IMG/VR virus record: IMGVR_UViG_3300045988_183476
Reading direction: 5' to 3' (one strand)
Source: a virus
DNA length: 43,115 nt
In this document: piece by piece, positions 159-39,967 of the stretch
Layout of the letters: every line of letters starts with the position of its first letter
How positions within the stretch are numbered: the first letter of the stretch is position 1
Program-made: the position numbers and the translations under genes
Notes under the pieces: model-generated
Told to the model about the DNA's origin: nothing
Database searches by the model: none
What the model saw: the letters and a program-made list of their open reading frames with translations, nothing else

Positions 159-213
159 TTTATACAGAAAAATCAGATAAGCAAGATTTCTGTCATACTA
201 TATAGGAAAGGAG
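159..213 (+). promoter_or_regulatory. P-module promoter P1 followed by SD-like GGAAAGGAGG
   Basis: TTATACAGAAAAA A-tract, -35-like TCAGAT (173-178), 17-nt spacer, -10 TACTAT (196-201); same module at 4011, 13211, 14794, 17888, 30884. Confidence 0.5.
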
Positions 214-1660: not shown

Positions 1661-1835
1661 AATAAAAAGAGTCAAAAGAGATAATCAAAGTGAACTACCC
1701 ACCACCTAAAGGTAGTGGACTTCTGTTAAATGGTTCACCAGACTAAGCATTCAGAAATGGATACTACGATATTTAGGTCATGATACCCTCGGTTGACGCA
1801 ACAGACCGTCGCTCTATCATACATATTTAACAAAA

Positions 1836-2015
1836 TAATATAAGGATTCCCCTTCCTCAACATCAGTAGGCAGGGGAGGAATTATCTAAAATTCACTAAG
1901 CGTCAGTGGTGGGCGGAGAAAGATTGGTATCCCCCACTGACAAGAGACTTAAGCAACAGTCAGATTTTCCCGATATTCAGGCTCCGTTAAACTTACCGAC
2001 TGTGGATTAAAACAA
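1836..2015 (+). ncRNA. R element, type 1, full length
   Basis: AATATAAGGATTCCCC...GATTAAAACAA; one mismatch in H2 (ACAGTCAG). Confidence 0.6.
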
Positions 2016-2642: not shown

Positions 2643-2709
2643 TCTATCATTATATATCTGAGATAAATTGTTGACGAAAAGGAGGTTAAAATATCGAGTC
2701 AAAATCTCA
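2643..2709 (+). promoter_or_regulatory. leader module a: -10-like CTATCATTATAT plus 5' hairpin with GAAAAGGAGG loop
   Basis: lower stem TGAGAT/ATCTCA, upper TTGAC/GTCAA, loop GAAAAGGAGGTTAAAA. Confidence 0.55.
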
Positions 2710-4010: not shown

Positions 4011-4070
4011 TTATACAGAAAAATCGAACCAGCCAAATTCCTGACATACTATATATGAAAGGTAGAAGGA
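4011..4070 (+). promoter_or_regulatory. P-module promoter P2
   Basis: TTATACAGAAAAATCGAAC...CATACTATATA, degenerate SD-like GAAAGGTAGAAGG. Confidence 0.45.
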
Positions 4071-4083
4071 TTTTATAAAAAGC

Positions 4084-4249
4084 AAGGATTCTCCTGCCTC
4101 TTTAAGTTGTAGGATGAATTGTAAAATTCATGTAACGTCAGTGGTGGGCGGAGAAGTTGTATCCCCCACTGACAGGAAGTGAAACCCTGCCGGAAGAAAT
4201 GCCGGCATTCAGCCTCCGCATAAAGGATACCGGCTGTAGATTAAAACAA
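4084..4249 (+). ncRNA. R element, type 2, 5' leader of 4305..5270
   Basis: H1 intact, GCGGAG/CUCCGC complementarity, GCCGG/CCGGC helices, tail GATTAAAACAA 4239-4249. Confidence 0.6.
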
Positions 4250-4304
4250 TTTTTATTGATGACAACGATATACCACTTTGATTCATTACTTTGGAGGAAT
4301 TGTT

Positions 4305-5510: not shown

Positions 5511-5555
5511 TCCACAGAAAAACGGGTTGTATTAATTAATATATCATACTTTCTA
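5511..5555 (+). promoter_or_regulatory. P-module-like promoter (P8)
   Basis: CCACAGAAAAAC...ATATCATACTTT; -35 not clear. Confidence 0.3.
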
Positions 5556-5586
5556 TAGAAGAAAATTTTTGATTCTTATTATTTTT

Positions 5587-5760
5587 CTTCAACATCAGTA
5601 GGTAGGGGAGGAATTATCTAAAATTCACTAAGCGTCAGTGGCGGGCGGAGAGAGATTGGTATCCCCCACTGACAAGAGACTTAAGCAACAGTCGGATTTT
5701 CCCGATATTCAGGCTTCGTTAAACTTACCGACTGTGGATTAAAACAATGATTAAAACAAT
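5587..5760 (+). ncRNA. R element, type 1, 5'-truncated, with tandemly duplicated tail
   Basis: Starts at CTTCAACATCAG; bulge T>C in H1; CUCCG>CUUCG (5716); GATTAAAACAAT twice (5737-5748, 5749-5760). Confidence 0.6.
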
Positions 5761-5866
5761 CGCAATAAACAGAGGCTTAAGGTTGCCAATCAACGAAAAG
5801 ACTTTCTGTATAAGCAGTCAAGACAGATAACCAATGCTTATGATCGAATTTGAAAGGGGGGATACT

Positions 5867-12440: not shown

Positions 12441-13001
12441 ATGTTAAAAGAAATCAAGAAGGAATCTGACGTTATTACAAATCAGGACTTATTTAATGAG
12501 ATCATTAAAAAAGTTAAAAAATCTGATAAATGGCCGTCCAATATTATAGACTATGAACTGGAAGACCGTTATGAAACAGGACTTTATAATTATGAGTTTA
12601 CCTTGAATCCTGTATTCACTCTGCAGCCAGGCAGTAATGAAGGATATTATCTAAGCCTTTATATCAGAGGATACTATGGTTTAACGGATAAGTTTGATTT
12701 TGTCTCGTTAGGGACAATCAAGACTCTGCTTACAGATAAGGAGAATATTCGACAGATGGCTGCTCTTTATGGGGAGTGTCTAATCGCTTATGAAGAAATC
12801 ATGAATGATGAACTGGATAAATTTACAAGAAAAGGGTATAACCTATTTCTGGTAGATGAAGAAGGAAAAATGCGTCATTGTCTCTCTGAGCTTTCAAGTA
12901 AAGAAAAAGCAATAGAAAGATTTAAACTGTGTTCTGTAAAATATCGCAAGGGTGTCGTAAGGGACAATCTGACGAGAAAAGAGTTTGTATTATCAAAGTA
13001 A
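12441..13001 (+). CDS. hypothetical protein, paralog B1
   Basis: AAGGAGA RBS; close paralog of 13296..13868. Confidence 0.8.
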   Translation: MLKEIKKESDVITNQDLFNEIIKKVKKSDKWPSNIIDYELEDRYETGLYNYEFTLNPVFTLQPGSNEGYYLSLYIRGYYGLTDKFDFVSLGTIKTLLTDKENIRQMAALYGECLIAYEEIMNDELDKFTRKGYNLFLVDEEGKMRHCLSELSSKEKAIERFKLCSVKYRKGVVRDNLTRKEFVLSK

Positions 13002-13295: not shown

Positions 13296-13868
13296 ATGTT
13301 GAAAGAGATTAAAAAAGAAAAAGATGTAATCACGAATCAGGACTTATTTAATGAGATCATTAAAAAAGTTAAAAAATCTGATAAATGGCCGTCCAGTATT
13401 ATAGACTATGAACTGGAAGACCATTATGAAACAGGACTTTATAATTATGAGTTTAATCCTGTATTCACTCTGCAGCCAGGCAGTAATGAAGGATATTATC
13501 TAAGCCTTTATATTAGAGGATACTATGGTTTAACGGATAAGTTTGATCTTGTCTCGTTAGGGACAATCAAGACTCTGCTTACAGATAAGGAGAGTATTCG
13601 ACAGATGGCTGCTCTTTATGGGGAGTGTCTAATCGCTTATGAAGAAATCATGAATGATGAACTGGATAAATTTACAAGAAAAGGGTATGACCTATTTCTG
13701 GTAGATAAGGAAGAAAAAATGCATCCTTATCTTTCTGGACTTTCAAGTAAGGAAAAAGCAATGGAAAGATTTAAGTTGTACCATGAAAAAAATTCGGAAC
13801 AGTATCTAAAAGGAGTCGTAAGGGATAATTTAACACGAAAAGAATTTGTTTTCTGGGCTTTCAGGTAA
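13296..13868 (+). CDS. hypothetical protein, paralog B2
   Basis: AAGGAGA RBS; paralog of 12441..13001 with a rearranged C-terminus. Confidence 0.8.
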   Translation: MLKEIKKEKDVITNQDLFNEIIKKVKKSDKWPSSIIDYELEDHYETGLYNYEFNPVFTLQPGSNEGYYLSLYIRGYYGLTDKFDLVSLGTIKTLLTDKESIRQMAALYGECLIAYEEIMNDELDKFTRKGYDLFLVDKEEKMHPYLSGLSSKEKAMERFKLYHEKNSEQYLKGVVRDNLTRKEFVFWAFR

Positions 13869-13960
13869 GGAAAAAGTATACATAGATATGCAATCATTGG
13901 CCACTACATTTCTACAAATTCATACTGTGAGTATCAGACTGGTTTAACAAAAAATCTTTT

Positions 13961-14067
13961 ATTCGTGTAACGTCAGTGGTGGGCGGCTGACATGAAGTTA
14001 ATCCCTGCCGGAAGAAATACCGGCATTCAGCCTCTGCATAAAGGATGCAGGCTGTGGATTAAAACAA
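13961..14067 (+). repeat. R element type 2, decayed (H0 missing, H1 collapsed)
   Basis: GTCAGTGGTGGGCGG-CTGAC deletion; CUCCG>CUCUG; tail GATTAAAACAA 14057-14067. Confidence 0.6.
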
Positions 14068-14793: not shown

Positions 14794-14838
14794 TTATACA
14801 GAAAAATTGAATGCATGAGATTTCTGTTATACTATATA
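14794..14838 (+). promoter_or_regulatory. P-module promoter P4 (best match to a sigma-A-like layout)
   Basis: -35 TTGAAT 14807-14812, 17-nt spacer, -10 TACTAT 14830-14835; the downstream AAAGGAGG here is the real RBS of 14858. Confidence 0.55.
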
Positions 14839-16913: not shown

Positions 16914-17747
16914 TTATAAAAAATCCATCAAAGATTTAAACTCTATATTCCGTTTTAGCTTTTTAAAGGCTATATTTTTAATCTGATATACCCTCTGATG
17001 GGTAAATCCCATTTTTTCTCCTATTTCTCTGCCGCTTAAAACTTCTTTTCCATTTAATCCATATAATTGTTCAATTACAAAAAGCTCATTTTCAGATAGA
17101 ATTTTCCTAAGTAGAATGGATACTCTTTTTTTCATATCCTTATTACAGACATAATTTTCAATATTTCTATCAGATGGAATTAGATTTCCTAATGTTATAT
17201 TCTCTTCCTGCTCTGTTATGGCTTCTTTATCCAGTGATAAACATTGTTGGTTCCAGTCCGTTAATACATATTCAAGAAGAACCCCTCTATACCCTGTACT
17301 TTTCTTTATCTCCTCCATTGTTGGTTTCCTGTTATATAAAAGATAATATTCCCGACAAAGTTGCTCTATTTTCTTTCTGGCTTCTGCGATACGAAAGGGA
17401 CGTATTATCATTTCTGAGGAGTTTGCAAATTCTCGGATATATTTTTTTATCCATGGAGTAGCATATGTAGAAAAGGCTGTCTGATAGGATAACTCAAATC
17501 GGCCAAGAGCTTCAATAAGCCCTTTAATTCCTTCATGAAAAAGGTCAGCAATATCTATACCAGGACATCCAAAAGAAAATTTCTGAGCAATTCTTAATAC
17601 AAGGCCTGCATTGGAAAGAATAATTTTGTCATGAATTAAATTGTCTCCTGTTTTTTTATATTCTAATATCAGTTTGTCTAAATCCTTTTTTGTGAGTACA
17701 GGGTTGTTTTTTATAATGTCATATATATAATATTCAGATTCGTACAT
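16914..17747 (-). CDS. sigma-70 family RNA polymerase sigma factor (regions 2, 3, 4)
   Basis: DLFHEGIKGLIEALGRFE / FSTYATPWIKKYI (region 2), REIGEKMGFTHQRVYQIKNIAFKKL (region 4 HTH); GAGGTGGA RBS. Confidence 0.85.
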   Translation of the reverse strand: MYESEYYIYDIIKNNPVLTKKDLDKLILEYKKTGDNLIHDKIILSNAGLVLRIAQKFSFGCPGIDIADLFHEGIKGLIEALGRFELSYQTAFSTYATPWIKKYIREFANSSEMIIRPFRIAEARKKIEQLCREYYLLYNRKPTMEEIKKSTGYRGVLLEYVLTDWNQQCLSLDKEAITEQEENITLGNLIPSDRNIENYVCNKDMKKRVSILLRKILSENELFVIEQLYGLNGKEVLSGREIGEKMGFTHQRVYQIKNIAFKKLKRNIEFKSLMDFL

Positions 17748-17789: not shown

Positions 17790-17825
17790 TTTATAGTATG
17801 AAAGAAAAATTTTTAAATCTTTTTT
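17790..17825 (-). promoter_or_regulatory. putative promoter of the sigma gene carrying the same CATACTAT -10 signature
   Basis: minus strand reads TTTCTTTCATACTATAAATATAG (-10 at 17793-17800). Confidence 0.35.
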
Positions 17826-17887
17826 CTGTAGAATTTTTTCTATTTCCCTTGTGTTTTTTGCTTTTATGGATTAGTACAACAAAAATC

Positions 17888-17935
17888 TTATACAGAAAAA
17901 TTAAAACCATCTTCAAAATATCATACTAATAATAA
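17888..17935 (+). promoter_or_regulatory. P-module promoter P5 (helicase/methylase operon)
   Basis: TTATACAGAAAAA, -35-like TTAAAA 17901-17906, 17-nt spacer, -10 TACTAA 17924-17929. Confidence 0.45.
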
Positions 17936-21641: not shown

Positions 21642-21703
21642 CATACTATTTTCGAAACAAATTTATTGATGTGAAGGAGGTTAAAATGCTAAATCATTGT
21701 TTC
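21642..21703 (+). promoter_or_regulatory. leader module b: CATACTAT + 5' hairpin with GAAGGAGG loop
   Basis: GAAACAA/TTGTTTC lower stem, ATTTAT bulge, TGAT/ATCA upper stem. Confidence 0.55.
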
Positions 21704-23441: not shown

Positions 23442-23640
23442 GCACCAAGTTGGTATACTAAAAAAATTATTTCTCGTTTGGCAGAGAACCTTTATGAAAA
23501 AGATTTCTTGGCAGATGCGAATAAATGTGTCGAGTTCACTACAGATTTTTAATGTTTGCGGGAGCTGTACCATCTATTTGAAGATTTCAAAAAAAAGGAG
23601 AATCCAGAAATTAAAGAGGTTTTCAAAAGAAACAATGGTA

Positions 23641-23680
23641 GCTGCTCTGAATAGTAATTTTCAGAGCAGCTTTTTATTTT
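23641..23680 (+). terminator. intrinsic terminator
   Basis: GCTGCTCTGA/TCAGAGCAGC stem followed by TTTTTATTTT. Confidence 0.75.
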
Positions 23681-23693
23681 ATTCCTAAAATAT

Positions 23694-23756
23694 CATACTA
23701 CCTTTGAAACAAATCTATTGATGAGAAGGAGGAATAAAATTATCAATCATTGTTTC
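23694..23756 (+). promoter_or_regulatory. leader module c
   Basis: CATACTAC then GAAACAA/TTGTTTC stem, loop GAGAAGGAGGAATAAAA. Confidence 0.55.
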
Positions 23757-27219: not shown

Positions 27220-28875
27220 TTACGCAAAACAAAGCTGTCCATCTGGAGCGGCTATAAATACCGAAGAAACTGTTTCTTCTTTTTTCTCTGGCCGTGTAAA
27301 TAGAATCCTCTTATCTTTAAGTTCGCTAATCAGTTCATCAATTGCTTCATTGATTCGTATTCTCTCATCGCCTCTTGGATACGCATAAATCCAATTTCCT
27401 TTTTTATCCATAGAAACATAGGTATTGCAATGTCCATTCAGATAATCATTTCGTTTATCTTCAGAAGCTAATTTATCAGAAAGATAGCAAGCAAAGGCTC
27501 TGGCGAACAATTCGCATCCAGAACTCCAATACCCATGACTATCTTTCGAATATTGTTTATCAAACTGAGTAGAATCTACATAATATTGTGTATAAATTCC
27601 ATTTTCATTGTAATGAATTCGATTCATGACTTTCCTCAAAGACTTGACATGATCGAATATCCGTCCTTCAGTAGCTAAACATGAAAATCCAGCAGACTGT
27701 CCTATTAGATGGTCTAAAGCATGAGCCCACTCATGTCCAAGAGAACCAGCCCCACGTAATCGGGTTAGATTAATCACTTCCCGTAATGGTTCATAATGTG
27801 CCGCTGCATCTCCACGTCCTCTTGCTCCAAAAGCAATCGCGAGGCTTCCACAAGATAGTCCTGGCAGGGATACACTTTTTTCGTCTATATCTAGTGCATA
27901 TGCAAGATCCGCAAAGGCATCATAAGCATAGTCTAAAGATATTTGGCGTTCGTTATTATTGGTCCAATTACCAAACTCTCCGGCTCGTATACCATACCGC
28001 TCAATCAACTCTTCACCCGTGATGTGTTTATTTTGAGGTCTCCATGTTTCTCCAGCCCTCTCCAAAGTTTCAAATTGTTTCGGCATCCATTTTTCTTTCC
28101 TTTTTCTTTTTGACACAGCCTTTTTCTCTTTAAAAACTTCTTTTTGTTTTTCTTCACAATTTTCCTGTGTCCCACAAAAAAGGATATTATGGCGCTCATC
28201 GATCAAAACATAAGTTTTATCTACAAGAACAACATTTGGTTTAGGATAACAATAATAGGTAGAACATACTGATTTATAAATAAGGATTGTTCTTCCTCTA
28301 TCCTCAGCAACAGAACATTTATCTCCGTCAATAAAGAGCACTGGAAATTGCTTTTTCATGATTTCGTCTTCTGTCATGGCAAAATTCTCTTTTCCCATTT
28401 TACGTTTCATATTAAGAAGTCCATACGCTCCTGTGTTCTTTAAAAATTTATTGCCGTTAAGAATATTTTCAAAAGGAGCAATATATTCATAAGCACGTCC
28501 ATATTTTTTCTGTAAAAACACTCCGTCAAGAGCTTTTTGTTCAAAATCAGAAATTTCTTTTTCCGTTTTGACTGCTTCAACCATAGAACGTATTTTACGG
28601 ACACCATTGATATATTCTTCCGCAGAAATATAATTATTCTTTTTTGGGGTTACTGTTTTCCGCATTTCGTTGTGCCAGTAAACGATAAAGCGGGAAAAAC
28701 CTTTCTCTAATTCATCCTGTGTATCTGGTTTTGGCCAGATATAATCTCGTTTTATGTATTTTTCTTTTTCAGAAGCTGTCATGTTTTTTGTATCTTCTAT
28801 ACACAAACCTCTTTTTACCCATACATCTTTTCTTGCTCCACCGATTTTTGATCCAAAGTCATGAATTGTTTTCAT
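27220..28875 (-). CDS. LPD1-like zincin metallopeptidase-fold protein of the polyvalent-protein type
   Basis: AGGAGG RBS; GEFGNWTNNNERQ...LAIAFGARGRGDAAAHYEP...INLTRLRGAGSLGHEWAHALDH (HExxH) ...ELFARAF. Confidence 0.8.
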   Translation of the reverse strand: MKTIHDFGSKIGGARKDVWVKRGLCIEDTKNMTASEKEKYIKRDYIWPKPDTQDELEKGFSRFIVYWHNEMRKTVTPKKNNYISAEEYINGVRKIRSMVEAVKTEKEISDFEQKALDGVFLQKKYGRAYEYIAPFENILNGNKFLKNTGAYGLLNMKRKMGKENFAMTEDEIMKKQFPVLFIDGDKCSVAEDRGRTILIYKSVCSTYYCYPKPNVVLVDKTYVLIDERHNILFCGTQENCEEKQKEVFKEKKAVSKRKRKEKWMPKQFETLERAGETWRPQNKHITGEELIERYGIRAGEFGNWTNNNERQISLDYAYDAFADLAYALDIDEKSVSLPGLSCGSLAIAFGARGRGDAAAHYEPLREVINLTRLRGAGSLGHEWAHALDHLIGQSAGFSCLATEGRIFDHVKSLRKVMNRIHYNENGIYTQYYVDSTQFDKQYSKDSHGYWSSGCELFARAFACYLSDKLASEDKRNDYLNGHCNTYVSMDKKGNWIYAYPRGDERIRINEAIDELISELKDKRILFTRPEKKEETVSSVFIAAPDGQLCFA

Positions 28876-28910: not shown

Positions 28911-28975
28911 TGGACAATGACTATATTTAAAACCTCCCTTTCGTCAATAATCTTATCCATTATTAATATGAGTTA
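28911..28975 (-). promoter_or_regulatory. leader module i (only minus-strand copy), head of the 28875..25971 operon
   Basis: minus strand: CTCATATTAATAATGGATAAGATTATTGACGAAAGGGAGGTTTTAAATATAGTCATTGTCCAA; TGGATAA/TTGTCCA (one U-G), TGAC/GTCA. Confidence 0.55.
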
Positions 28976-29054: not shown

Positions 29055-29120
29055 GTCATACTTTTTTTTGAACAGAAGTAATGACGAAAAGGAGGTATAA
29101 AATTTATAGTCAGTTCTGTT
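29055..29120 (+). promoter_or_regulatory. leader module d
   Basis: GTCATACT then AACAGAA/TTCTGTT, TGAC/GTCA, loop GAAAAGGAGGTATAAAA. Confidence 0.55.
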
Positions 29121-29156
29121 TTATATGCAAGACAAGATTTTAGGAGGAAAACAATT

Positions 29157-30883: not shown

Positions 30884-30930
30884 TTATACAGAAAAATCAG
30901 ATAAGTAAGGTTTCTGTCATACTATATAAG
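30884..30930 (+). promoter_or_regulatory. P-module promoter P6
   Basis: -35-like TCAGAT 30897-30902, 17-nt spacer, -10 TACTAT 30920-30925, then AAGGGAGG. Confidence 0.5.
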
Positions 30931-31636: not shown

Positions 31637-31651
31637 GTCATGACTATAAAA

Positions 31652-31677
31652 AGGCTGCTTTGAGCGGCCTTTTTTAT
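31652..31677 (+). terminator. intrinsic terminator
   Basis: AGGCTGCT/AGCGGCCT stem followed by TTTTTT. Confidence 0.65.
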
Positions 31678-31689
31678 TTCTCTATCCAA

Positions 31690-31756
31690 AAAATCATTTT
31701 ATTATTGGATAAATTTATTGACGAATAGGAGGTATGAAAAGATAGTCATTATCCAA
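31690..31756 (+). promoter_or_regulatory. leader module e
   Basis: TTGGATAA/TTATCCAA lower stem, ATTTAT bulge, TGAC/GTCA, loop GAATAGGAGGTATGAAAA. Confidence 0.55.
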
Positions 31757-33198: not shown

Positions 33199-33268
33199 AA
33201 TCTCATATTACTATTAGACAAATTTATTGACGAAAAGGAGGAAGTGAAAGATTTAGTCATTGTCCTAA
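33199..33268 (+). promoter_or_regulatory. leader module f
   Basis: CTCATATTACTAT then TTAGACAA/TTGTCCTAA, ATTTAT bulge, TGAC/GTCA, loop GAAAAGGAGGAAGTGAAA. Confidence 0.55.
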
Positions 33269-35511: not shown

Positions 35512-35530
35512 TATATAATCTAATTTAAAA

Positions 35531-35570
35531 ATCCAAGAGAATATTAAGATTTCTCTTGGATTTTGTTTTA
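35531..35570 (+). terminator. second tandem terminator
   Basis: ATCCAAGAGAA/TTCTCTTGGAT stem followed by TTTGTTTT. Confidence 0.65.
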
Positions 35571-35582
35571 TTATCTGAAAAA

Positions 35583-35645
35583 TCATACTATTTCTGAAAC
35601 AAATCATTGATGAGATAGGAGGTTAAAATTTAATCATTGTTTCAG
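35583..35645 (+). promoter_or_regulatory. leader module g (exemplar)
   Basis: -35-like TTGTTT, 17 nt, TACTAT; CTGAAACAA/TTGTTTCAG lower stem, TGAT/ATCA, loop GAGATAGGAGGTTAAAA. Confidence 0.6.
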
Positions 35646-37357: not shown

Positions 37358-37388
37358 TTAAAAATTTCATGAAACAATGATATATAAA

Positions 37389-37420
37389 CTGTCAGGTTTA
37401 AATACCTGGCAGTTTTCTTT
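37389..37420 (+). terminator. intrinsic terminator
   Basis: CTGTCAGGT/ACCTGGCAG stem followed by TTTTCTTTT. Confidence 0.7.
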
Positions 37421-37533
37421 TACAAAAATTTATTCTCATATCTTATACTGCCCTCTCTTTTTAGTTATTTGTATTTACATTCTATCATTATATTTATGTA
37501 ATCATTAATCTACAGATGAAAAGGAGGAATTAT

Positions 37534-37770
37534 ATGATGCAGATGGATTTAGACTTAAACACATTAATGCAGAAGGCTTATGAAATAAGGAGACAATTTC
37601 CTATTGGAAGCCGTGTACGACTAATCAGAATGGATGGGAAATATCTGCCTATCGGTTCAGAAGGAACTGTGACAGGAGTAGATGATATAGGCACTATCCA
37701 TGTTAGATGGGATTGTGGTTCATCTTTAGGTGTTGTGTATCCAGAAGATAAGTGCGAAATTATTTATTAG
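37534..37770 (+). CDS. DUF4314 domain protein
   Basis: AAAGGAGG RBS; RVRLIRMDGKYLPIGSEGTVTGVDDIGTIHVRWDCGSSLGVVYPEDK. Confidence 0.85.
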   Translation: MMQMDLDLNTLMQKAYEIRRQFPIGSRVRLIRMDGKYLPIGSEGTVTGVDDIGTIHVRWDCGSSLGVVYPEDKCEIIY

Positions 37771-39833: not shown

Positions 39834-39862
39834 AGGTTATGTCAGTGGTGGGCGGAGAAACG
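39830..39862 (+). repeat. R element type 2 fragment with an internal deletion
   Basis: CTTTAGGTTATG-TCAGTGGTGGGCGGAGAAACG matches 248-309 minus about 26 nt. Confidence 0.5.
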
Positions 39863-39893
39863 TTACCATGCTCCTCTGTTTTATCCCTAAAAT

Positions 39894-39967
39894 TTCATAC
39901 TATTCATGAAACAATTAATGCAGATGAGAAGGAGGGATAAATCATATATCATAATTGTTTTGTCATG
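39894..39967 (+). promoter_or_regulatory. leader module h
   Basis: TTCATACTAT then CATGAAACAATTA/TAATTGTTTTGTCATG, loop GAGAAGGAGGGATAAA. Confidence 0.5.

Follow-up and report, generated by a model that had tools for sequence, protein, structure and literature searches.

Hairpins with a Shine-Dalgarno loop behind a recurrent promoter: a candidate 5' mRNA stabiliser spread through a mobile element of human-gut Lachnospiraceae

What is the short hairpin at positions 35583-35645 of the virus record IMGVR_UViG_3300045988_183476, and what could it do at the head of so many genes? The window analysed here, that is, the whole stretch of DNA of this record, is 43.1 kb long with 33% G+C, and its genes lie nearly all on the plus strand. 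A first-pass annotation, made from the letters alone, had listed nine promoter-proximal hairpins with co-varying stems and had compared their loop with STAB-SD, a Shine-Dalgarno (SD)-like 5' stabiliser of mRNA. We find that the RNA structure and the cassette that carries it are well supported. Our favoured reading, to which we give a probability of about 0.5, is that the hairpin is a 5'-terminal mRNA stabiliser whose loop presents a decoy ribosome site of the STAB-SD type and which travels on a portable T-tract-promoter-leader cassette; the stabilising role itself is the part that we infer.

All nine listed copies were found, with coordinates within a few nucleotides (nt) of the first listing (Table 1). 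The core word TGAYGNNNNGGAGG (TGAYG-N4-GGAGG) occurred seven times in the window compared with 0.05 expected from dinucleotide shuffles, which excludes a chance origin. A covariance model (R1) was trained on five copies while the other four were held out, and the window was searched with filters off. The model recovered all four held-out copies. No tenth site was detected in the window by this search, and the next best match had an E value of 0.3. The window therefore holds exactly nine copies, eight on the plus strand and one on the minus strand. Each points the same way as the gene after it, the minus-strand copy included, and the copies at 28911(-) and 29055(+) have one divergent intergenic region in common.

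The hairpin consists of two helices separated by a bulge. Its lower stem of 6-9 bp differs in sequence between copies, and each 5' arm is complementary to its own 3' arm. The 5' arms in the window include GAAACAA, GGATAA, AGACAA, AACAGAA and GAGAT, and the pair AACAGAA/TTCTGTT stands beside GAAACAA/TTGTTTC, TTGGATAA/TTATCCAA, TTAGACAA/TTGTCCTAA, TGAGAT/ATCTCA and TGGATAA/TTGTCCA. The bulge lies on the 5' side and is 4-6 nt long and A/T-rich (ATTTAT-like), with 0-1 nt opposite. The upper stem has 4-5 bp of the form [T]TGA(C/T)/(G/A)TCA[A], TGAC/GTCA alternating with TGAT/ATCA in the window. The loop of 22-24 nt begins with G-N4-GGAGG and is A/T-rich thereafter; its GGAGG is invariant among the nine window copies.

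Model searches of gut viral and metagenome contigs yielded ~40 distinct hairpin variants, which added the lower stems GAGATA/TATCTC, GAGATAA/TTATCTC, AACGAATAA/TTATTTGTT, AGAAGCAA/TTGTTTCT (with a G-U pair), TAGACA/TGTCTA, TGACAA/TTGTCA and GGAATA/TATTCC, and the upper stems CGAT/ATCG and TGACG/CGTCA. Covariation was assessed on 39 distinct variants in an alignment fitted to the covariance model. Standard pairs filled 92.6% of the cells, compared with 24-44% when the 3' partners were slid out of place. Nine of the 12 pairs had changed on both sides (0-3 of 12 when slid, 5.8 in shuffles), and the covariation score was 0.452, against at most 0.138 with slid partners; none of 500 shuffles reached it. 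The closing pair of the upper stem was C-G in 25 variants, U-A in 13 and U-G in one, and never C-A. When arms were compared by an alignment-free test, the median pairing energy was -7.0 kcal/mol with the arm's own 3' partner, -2.5 kcal/mol with arms of other stem classes and -1.8 kcal/mol with shuffled arms. Taken together, these compensatory changes among related elements confirm the co-varying stems of the first-pass annotation, and a two-helix stem-bulge-stem-loop with true covariation is well supported by the comparison of variants. It is pairing rather than sequence that is conserved, as in 5'-terminal stem-loop stabilisers of the aprE, ompA and ermC type, although the upper-stem sequence is conserved too.

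The folding strand is the transcribed sense strand, because G-U outnumbers A-C by 16 to 3 among the inner pairs and because several copies give a much more stable fold as sense RNA than as the reverse complement (in one case, -10.1 compared with -2.5 kcal/mol).

A promoter-like hexamer precedes every copy, as the annotation had claimed when it placed a -10 a few nt upstream. The hexamer is of the CATWYT type before all nine window copies (CATACT, CATATT, CATTTT or CATTAT) and in 40 of 40 variants (CATACT 13, CATTCT 10, CATTTT 7, CATATT 5, others 5). Its 3' end lies 5-7 nt from the base of the stem in 36 of the 40. Transcription usually starts at the seventh nucleotide after a -10 hexamer; here that nucleotide is a purine in 39 of 40 variants and a G in 27. 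The predicted +1 thus approximates the first nucleotide of the stem, which should place the hairpin at the extreme 5' end of the transcript. Alignment on the hexamer revealed a near-invariant T6-R-TTT tract at -25 to -15 and AAAAT directly before the hexamer, with ~7 nt between the two in this compact promoter. The window itself encodes a divergent RpoD-like sigma factor at 16914-17747(-).

Distances on the other side of the hairpin are loose. The real start codon follows after 19 to 156 nt and the real SD 6-111 nt past the hairpin. Because the distance to the promoter is fixed while those to the start codon and SD vary, the function of the hairpin is probably tied to the transcript 5' end and not to the ribosome-binding site (RBS).

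How much of this arrangement travels as a unit? In most copies the T tract doubles as the U-tract of the preceding gene's G+C-rich terminator. Such a G+C-rich hairpin with its T tract lies directly upstream of six of the nine window copies, in keeping with the claim that the hairpins usually follow a terminator; at copy 39894 the terminator is ~70 nt upstream. The same module precedes unrelated genes. LPD1 orthologues with 83-93% identity in two relatives (contigs L077 and L078) have no hairpin upstream, and identical hairpins occur before different downstream sequences; the promoter-leader module is therefore portable. The terminator-promoter-leader cassette first proposed therefore stands in its promoter-leader part. 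The terminator stems are not homologous between copies and lie outside the homologous repeat, which is made up of the T tract, promoter and hairpin.

We then asked what the loop offers. GGAGG was kept in 39 of 40 variants, the lone GGAAG being in the weakest copy. To look at, the loop resembles a flawless Firmicute RBS that lacks a start codon. Duplexes between the loop and the anti-SD (the canonical Firmicute 16S tail, assumed here rather than read from the host) had a median of -13.4 kcal/mol, compared with -9.6 kcal/mol for the window's 45 real RBSs (Mann-Whitney p 9e-6). An ATG, GTG or TTG lies 4-11 nt after GGAGG in only 8 of 39 variants and in none of the remaining 31, and the open reading frames (ORFs) from such starts have 4-30 codons and are not conserved. 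ATG exchanges with ATA between near-identical relatives (window 21652 and contig L204; contigs L083 and L148). In the window, copy 21642 is the only one with an AUG at RBS spacing, and this codon is AUA in L204. Further downstream, 34 of 39 variants have a separate SD and ATG. These results agree with the annotation on three points: mini-ORFs behind the loop are absent or not conserved, GGAGG is not used for conserved translation in spite of its strong anti-SD match, and each downstream gene has its own RBS. Selection keeps the SD of the loop, with no start codon under selection.

Table 1. Hairpin copies and class-1 promoter repeats in the window (positions from the first letter of the window; stems as 5' arm/3' arm).
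Feature	Span	Strand	-10 hexamer	Predicted +1	Hairpin	GGAGG	Stems	Context	Held-out match (position, E)
Copy 1	2648..2709	+	CATTAT 2648-2653	G 2660	2659-2709	2681-2685	TGAGAT/ATCTCA, TTGAC/GTCAA	real RBS, ATG 2737, multi-transmembrane protein	2658, 9e-8
Copy 2	21642..21703	+	CATACT 21642-21647	G 21654	21654-21703	21676-21680	GAAACAA/TTGTTTC, TGAT/ATCA	C5 DNA methyltransferase downstream, ATG 21731	
Copy 3	23694..23756	+	CATACT 23694-23699	G 23706	23706-23756	23728-23732		terminator 23640-23671 upstream; gene ATG 23839	
Copy 4	28911..28970	-	CATATT 28970-28965	G 28958	28959-28911	28937-28933	TGGATAA/TTGTCCA (one U-G)	LPD1-domain protein 27220-28875 (-), same orientation	
Copy 5	29057..29121	+	CATACT 29057-29062	29069/29070	29070-29121	29091-29095	GAACAGAA/TTCTGTTT, TGAC/GTCA	ATG 29157; divergent from copy 4	29067, 7e-8
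Copy 6	31695..31756	+	CATTTT 31695-31700	G 31707	31705-31756	31728-31732	TTGGATAA/TTATCCAA	terminator 31648-31674 upstream; gene ATG 31798	
Copy 7	33204..33268	+	CATATT 33204-33209	A 33216	33214-33268	33237-33241	TTAGACAA/TTGTCCTAA, 1-nt bulge	GNAT acetyltransferase ATG 33289, then DUF3841 and YAcAr genes	
Copy 8 (flagged copy)	35584..35645	+	CATACT 35584-35589	G 35596	35594-35645	35618-35622	CTGAAACAA/TTGTTTCAG, TGAT/ATCA	terminator-like hairpin ~35530-35560 upstream; ATG 35685	35594, 7e-9
Copy 9 (most divergent)	39896..39967	+	CATACT 39896-39901	G 39908	39908-39961	39931-39935	GAAACAATTA/TAATTGTTTT, GAT/ATC; optional outer CATG/CATG pairs to 39967	small hydrophobic ORF (ATG ~39996), then gene 40118	39909, 2e-3
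Class-1 promoter repeat	160-201	+							
Class-1 promoter repeat	4011-4052	+							
Class-1 promoter repeat	5511-5552	+							
Class-1 promoter repeat	14794-14835	+							
Class-1 promoter repeat	17888-17929	+							
Class-1 promoter repeat	30884-30925	+							
Class-1 promoter repeat	17793-17834	-						precedes the element's own sigma-factor gene	

Under the stabiliser reading, each copy would be the first ~50-55 nt of an mRNA. Transcription would start 6-7 nt past the -10, on a purine that is also the first hairpin nucleotide. With the 5' triphosphate nucleotide paired, RppH and the 5'-end-dependent RNases (RNase J1, RNase Y) would find no single-stranded entry, and the exposed SD of the loop would, in the manner of STAB-SD, add a second roadblock by capturing a 30S subunit or, at a minimum, the 3' tail of the 16S rRNA. 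The result would be long-lived, highly expressed mRNAs for genes needed soon after cell entry, among them those for the DNA methyltransferase, the LPD1/LPD16 polyvalent-protein modules, the PARP-like enzyme, the antirepressor and the GNAT protein. The compared sequences show that the structure is on the sense strand and at a fixed position after the -10, that the decoy SD is strong and has no conserved start, and that the module is portable; we infer the position of the transcription start site (TSS), 30S binding and stabilisation.

How does this compare with known 5' stabilisers? The STAB-SD of Bacillus thuringiensis cry3A was reportedly described by Agaisse and Lereclus in 1996 and by Mathy and colleagues in 2007, and we take GAAAGGAGG to be its exact sequence. 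It is described as an unstructured, linear SD-like sequence at the 5' end of the processed cryIIIA transcript and stops RNase J1 via 30S binding (PMC4113751). The hairpin resembles it in having an SD-like 5' untranslated region (UTR) sequence able to pair with the 16S 3' end, upstream of the gene's own RBS and in a Bacillota host. Unlike STAB-SD, the SD of the hairpin sits in the loop of a conserved two-helix structure at the predicted primary +1, whereas STAB-SD halts RNase J1 arriving from upstream on processed RNA; the hairpin is also present in many copies per element. The STAB-SD interpretation of the first-pass annotation is therefore sustained as far as a strong anti-SD match without an initiation role goes, but a pure STAB-SD does not explain the closed loop, the conserved helix and the bulge.

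Occlusion of the 5' end has precedents as well. BsRppH needs a minimum of two 5' nucleotides that are unpaired (PMC3997798). In the aprE leader of B. subtilis (Hambraeus et al. 2002, cited in PMC3997798), a stem-loop at the 5' end together with the binding of ribosomes, not translation, sets stability. The hairpin would share with leaders of this type (also ermC, E. coli ompA hp1 and the T7 phi10 leader) the combination of a 5'-terminal stem-loop and a ribosome-binding site. In aprE the stem-loop and the real RBS are separate, whereas here a decoy SD is inside the loop and the real RBS is downstream. T7 class III promoters offer a parallel, with a conserved promoter and a conserved +1 hairpin joined at many sites of a single genome. 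The polypurine stabiliser of phage SP82 (Hue, Cohen & Bechhofer 1995, cited in PMC3997798 and PMC7509114) is an RBS-like 5' element of an early RNA. It reportedly stabilises downstream RNA, and it is similar to the hairpin as a phage 5' element that resembles an RBS; it is a single element, with no covarying hairpin described. What is new here is a decoy SD inside a covarying hairpin at the predicted +1 that has spread as a cassette through one mobile element, while the principle is known from Firmicute stabilisers.

Several observations weigh against the stabiliser reading. The TSS is predicted from a promoter that is non-canonical and lacks a TTGACA-like -35. As all variants belong to a single group of related elements, they are not independent and p-values are not strict, although the effect is large. 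RNAalifold on a plain MAFFT alignment of 30 variants gave no consensus pairs, because the stems are out of register and the A/U helices weak. The covariation counts are based on model-fitted alignments and the arm test, which was added because the alignments were fitted to the model and RNAalifold gave a blank. Isolated hairpin RNAs are weak (-5 to -12 kcal/mol, z-scores -0.3 to -2.7), and in folds of the full predicted 5' UTR the hairpin is part of the minimum free energy structure for only four or five of the nine copies. The case for structure is comparative, not thermodynamic. Moreover, a 22-24 nt loop is too small for a fully accommodated 30S unless the helices melt, and a model of end occlusion plus SD has no need for the conserved UGAY/RUCA upper stem, the G after it or the AUUUAU bulge. 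These conserved parts hint at a specific partner.

One reading that accommodates such a partner makes the hairpin a dedicated docking structure, recognised via bulge, upper helix and SD loop, with the early cassettes forming one post-transcriptional regulon. The partner could be the 30S subunit as a cap-like protective complex, or an RNA-binding regulator of the element or the host. We hold this reading tentatively and consider it unlikely.

Among the rivals proper, the one that survives best takes the hairpin to be an RNA operator for a trans-acting protein (host CsrA or a regulator of the element) or a nut/put-like RNA that modifies RNA polymerase (RNAP); either would make all cassettes one co-regulated regulon. 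We regard it as unlikely. A conserved upper stem, following G and A/U bulge beside a free lower stem are the usual sign of sequence-specific recognition, and the position right after the promoter is fixed. CsrA/RsmA sites typically have a GGA in a hairpin loop near the 5' end and a second site at the SD (e.g. hag BS1 in B. subtilis), and the loop has A-A-GGA with a second GGA-containing SD downstream, so that CsrA would bridge the loop GGA to a second site at the true SD. However, all five GGAGG bases are conserved together with the flanking AAA and U, which fits 16S pairing better than a protein that needs GGA only, and the loop far exceeds the usual size of CsrA or boxB loops. The window's small ORFs include no protein of the CsrA, Hfq or N type, and no Rfam family corresponds to the hairpin (Rfam 15, none of the copies matched, whether gathering thresholds or E <= 1 were applied). 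Antitermination is not needed because each unit has its own promoter and terminator.

The loop could also serve translation, as a standby or loading site for ribosomes or a device of another kind, from which a 30S subunit is handed to the real RBS or in which it is sequestered, tuning translation. The exposed and very strong SD of the loop would suit this role, as would a real RBS within tens of nt in most copies and the near-cognate AUU, AUA or AUC often found at RBS spacing in the loop. Yet it is the promoter distance that is fixed, not that to the start codon (19 to 156 nt), and the real RBSs are good ones to begin with, most of them unpaired by prediction. We also know of no description of such standby sites in Firmicutes, and we judge this explanation to be unlikely too.

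A DNA-level element is a poor candidate, whether as an internal sigma-A promoter, a repressor operator, a Frpo-like single-stranded DNA promoter as in conjugative leading regions, or an attC-like recombination site that folds, as in gene cassettes. TTGAC is the best-conserved word, and a minimal sigma-70 test (TTGACG as -35 and TAnAGT as -10 within the inverted repeat) was passed by three of nine window copies and 11 of 41 variants. The cassettes are portable, and gene content and one-strand orientation resemble the anti-defence islands of plasmid leading regions (PMC11541004). Against this, 30 of 41 variants fail the promoter test, and neither a promoter nor an operator explains the perfect C-G/U-A coupling and the copy-specific lower stems. 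The excess of G-U over A-C, an orientation that tracks the gene even for the minus-strand copy, and a loop conserved where the outer stem is not also argue for RNA; neither the window nor the flanks examined showed an integrase or relaxase.

Individual identities of this kind were rejected in turn. The internal sigma-70 promoter fell on its low pass rate, and a general promoter scan did no better than shuffles. In a Frpo/ssi promoter, the -35 and the -10 must both be rebuilt within a long intrastrand duplex (PMC11541004), whereas only 11-13 bp are paired here, the -10 is outside the hairpin, and one copy with its gene is on the other strand. An intrinsic terminator or attenuator does not fit A/U-rich stems, a loop of 22-24 nt and no T tract after it, and a terminator scan omitted the hairpins. 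Integron attC sites have outer R''/R' boxes (RYYYAAC/GTTRRRY) and a variable loop, lie 3' of promoterless cassettes and are served by the IntI integrase; here the outer stems are variable without an R-box, the loop is conserved and the sites are 5' of genes and have a promoter. The window proteins that were scanned yielded no integrase domain. A miniature inverted-repeat transposable element or terminal inverted repeat and an RNase III site were rejected on anatomy, and a trans-acting anti-loop RNA was rejected as all CCTCCTTTTC-like sites are simply loops or RBSs read on the opposite strand.

Least probable of all, and given hardly any weight, is that the loop SD is a non-functional leftover RBS of a duplicated promoter-RBS module: at 37470-37530, where there is no hairpin, GATGAAAAGGAGG comes after the same -10 type (TCATTATAT) and serves gene 37516 as its true RBS, and the class-1 promoter at 14827 is followed by GAAAAGGAGG as a true RBS, but 39 of 40 diverged variants retain GGAGG although start codons appear and disappear, and compensatory changes preserve two helices around it.

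No relatives were found in plasmid and phage collections by megablast with half of the window, and tblastn of the sigma factor and the LPD1 protein against annotated collections gave only distant matches. When the species genomes of GTDB were scanned with the core pattern, 55 loci matched; nearly all were chance matches in unrelated phyla, and only three of them scored with the model, weakly. Corresponding scans of IMG/VR and metagenome contigs matched many human-gut contigs, up to 148 kb among the matches listed, and proteins of the window recur on hundreds of metagenome contigs of up to 575 kb. IMG/VR classes the relatives as viral. Names of metagenome-assembled genome proteins at NCBI make Anaerobutyricum soehngenii (Lachnospiraceae, Bacillota) the most likely host, and we take the source to be a phage or another large mobile element from a Lachnospiraceae bacterium of the human gut. 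The element was followed for up to about 10 kb to each side of the window. Our literature searches brought up no description of the hairpin motif.

Additional hairpin copies lie beyond the window on the same element, and the hairpin occurs at least 9-15 times per element. The genes directly after hairpins include those for a C5 DNA methyltransferase, LPD1- and LPD16-domain proteins, a PARP-like protein, a Bro-N/ANT antirepressor, GNAT and PDDEXK_2 proteins and a protein with sigma-70 region 4 and the RNAP alpha C-terminal domain (alpha-CTD). This hairpin-led gene set is typical of early host takeover or counter-defence. Neighbouring genes include Bro-N/ANT, ImmA-type peptidase, SocA, radical-SAM and PIN genes, and there are insertions of IS605-type transposases. 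The sigma-70/alpha-CTD fusion was seen in a metagenome relative (L139:2919-3998), where the hairpin cassette drives the gene for a protein of 360 amino acids (aa); this unusual protein could interfere with host transcription. Relatives of the right flank carry insertion polymorphisms with IS605 OrfB/TnpB-type and Y1 transposase genes (L206 17454-18578, L207 4742-6721) and are otherwise collinear; an SMC_N/AAA_15 gene in the relatives is absent from the window.

A second promoter-like repeat, cTTATACAGAAAAAT-N19-20-(c)TGTCATACTATA ('class 1'), occurs without the hairpin and has a different upstream box (Table 1). Its -10 is that of the hairpin class plus a TG extension. At the predicted 5' ends at 193, 4044 (degenerate) and 30917, a GAAAGGAGG-like sequence without a start codon forms another 5'-proximal decoy SD; at 14827 this word serves as the true RBS. 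At 5544, the class-1 promoter has a different A/U-rich hairpin (5553-5595, GAAGAAAAT...ATTTTTCTTC) at its predicted +1, without an SD loop, which scored only E 0.3 with the hairpin model. To judge from this A/U-rich hairpin, the element may generally tend towards base-paired 5' ends. A further site at 37440-37530 has a terminator (37386-37415), then the hairpin-class-type -10 TCATTATAT and then GATGAAAAGGAGG, the loop word of the hairpins, which here is the real RBS of gene 37516-37770 (DUF4314), with no hairpin. The decoy-SD loop may have evolved from a site of this kind.

Three of the class-1 promoters are followed by a conserved leader of ~130-160 nt (262-425, 4112-4275 and 5610-5775), and partial copies lie near 13960-14010 and 39835-39875. 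Its complementary blocks are GUCAGUGGUGGG/CCCCCACUGAC, CCGG/CCGG and CAGYC/GRCUG, possibly also GCGGAG/CUCCGC and GGUAUCC/GGAUACC. It sits upstream of genes for a BspA-like LRR protein, a secreted protein and an sce7726-family member, and Rfam gave no match to it at E <= 1. This leader may represent a new structured RNA. HEARO is the omega RNA associated with IscB; at 1690-1885 (+) there is a full-length but sub-threshold match to it (RF02033, 58.6 bits against a gathering threshold of 83, E 1.8e-9), and after this match no IscB-sized ORF was found, only a lysine-rich ORF of 108 aa (2024-2350). Finally, 12441-13001 and 13296-13868 are tandem paralogues of 186 and 190 aa whose N-terminal two-thirds are nearly identical.

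With its ~40 covarying variants, the hairpin would be a new cis-acting RNA family outside Rfam. It would join two principles of mRNA protection in Firmicutes, a base-paired 5' end and an SD without a start codon, in one structure. It also shows an element packaging methyltransferase, polyvalent-protein-type and other likely counter-defence genes as shufflable, insulated terminator-promoter-leader-gene units. If the hairpin works as proposed, it would be a ready-made 5' UTR part for expression in Clostridia and a clean system in which to study how a 30S subunit on a structured decoy site blocks RNase J and RNase Y. If the docking reading is true, the early counter-defence cassettes of a very common gut element would share a self-insulating, portable expression unit.

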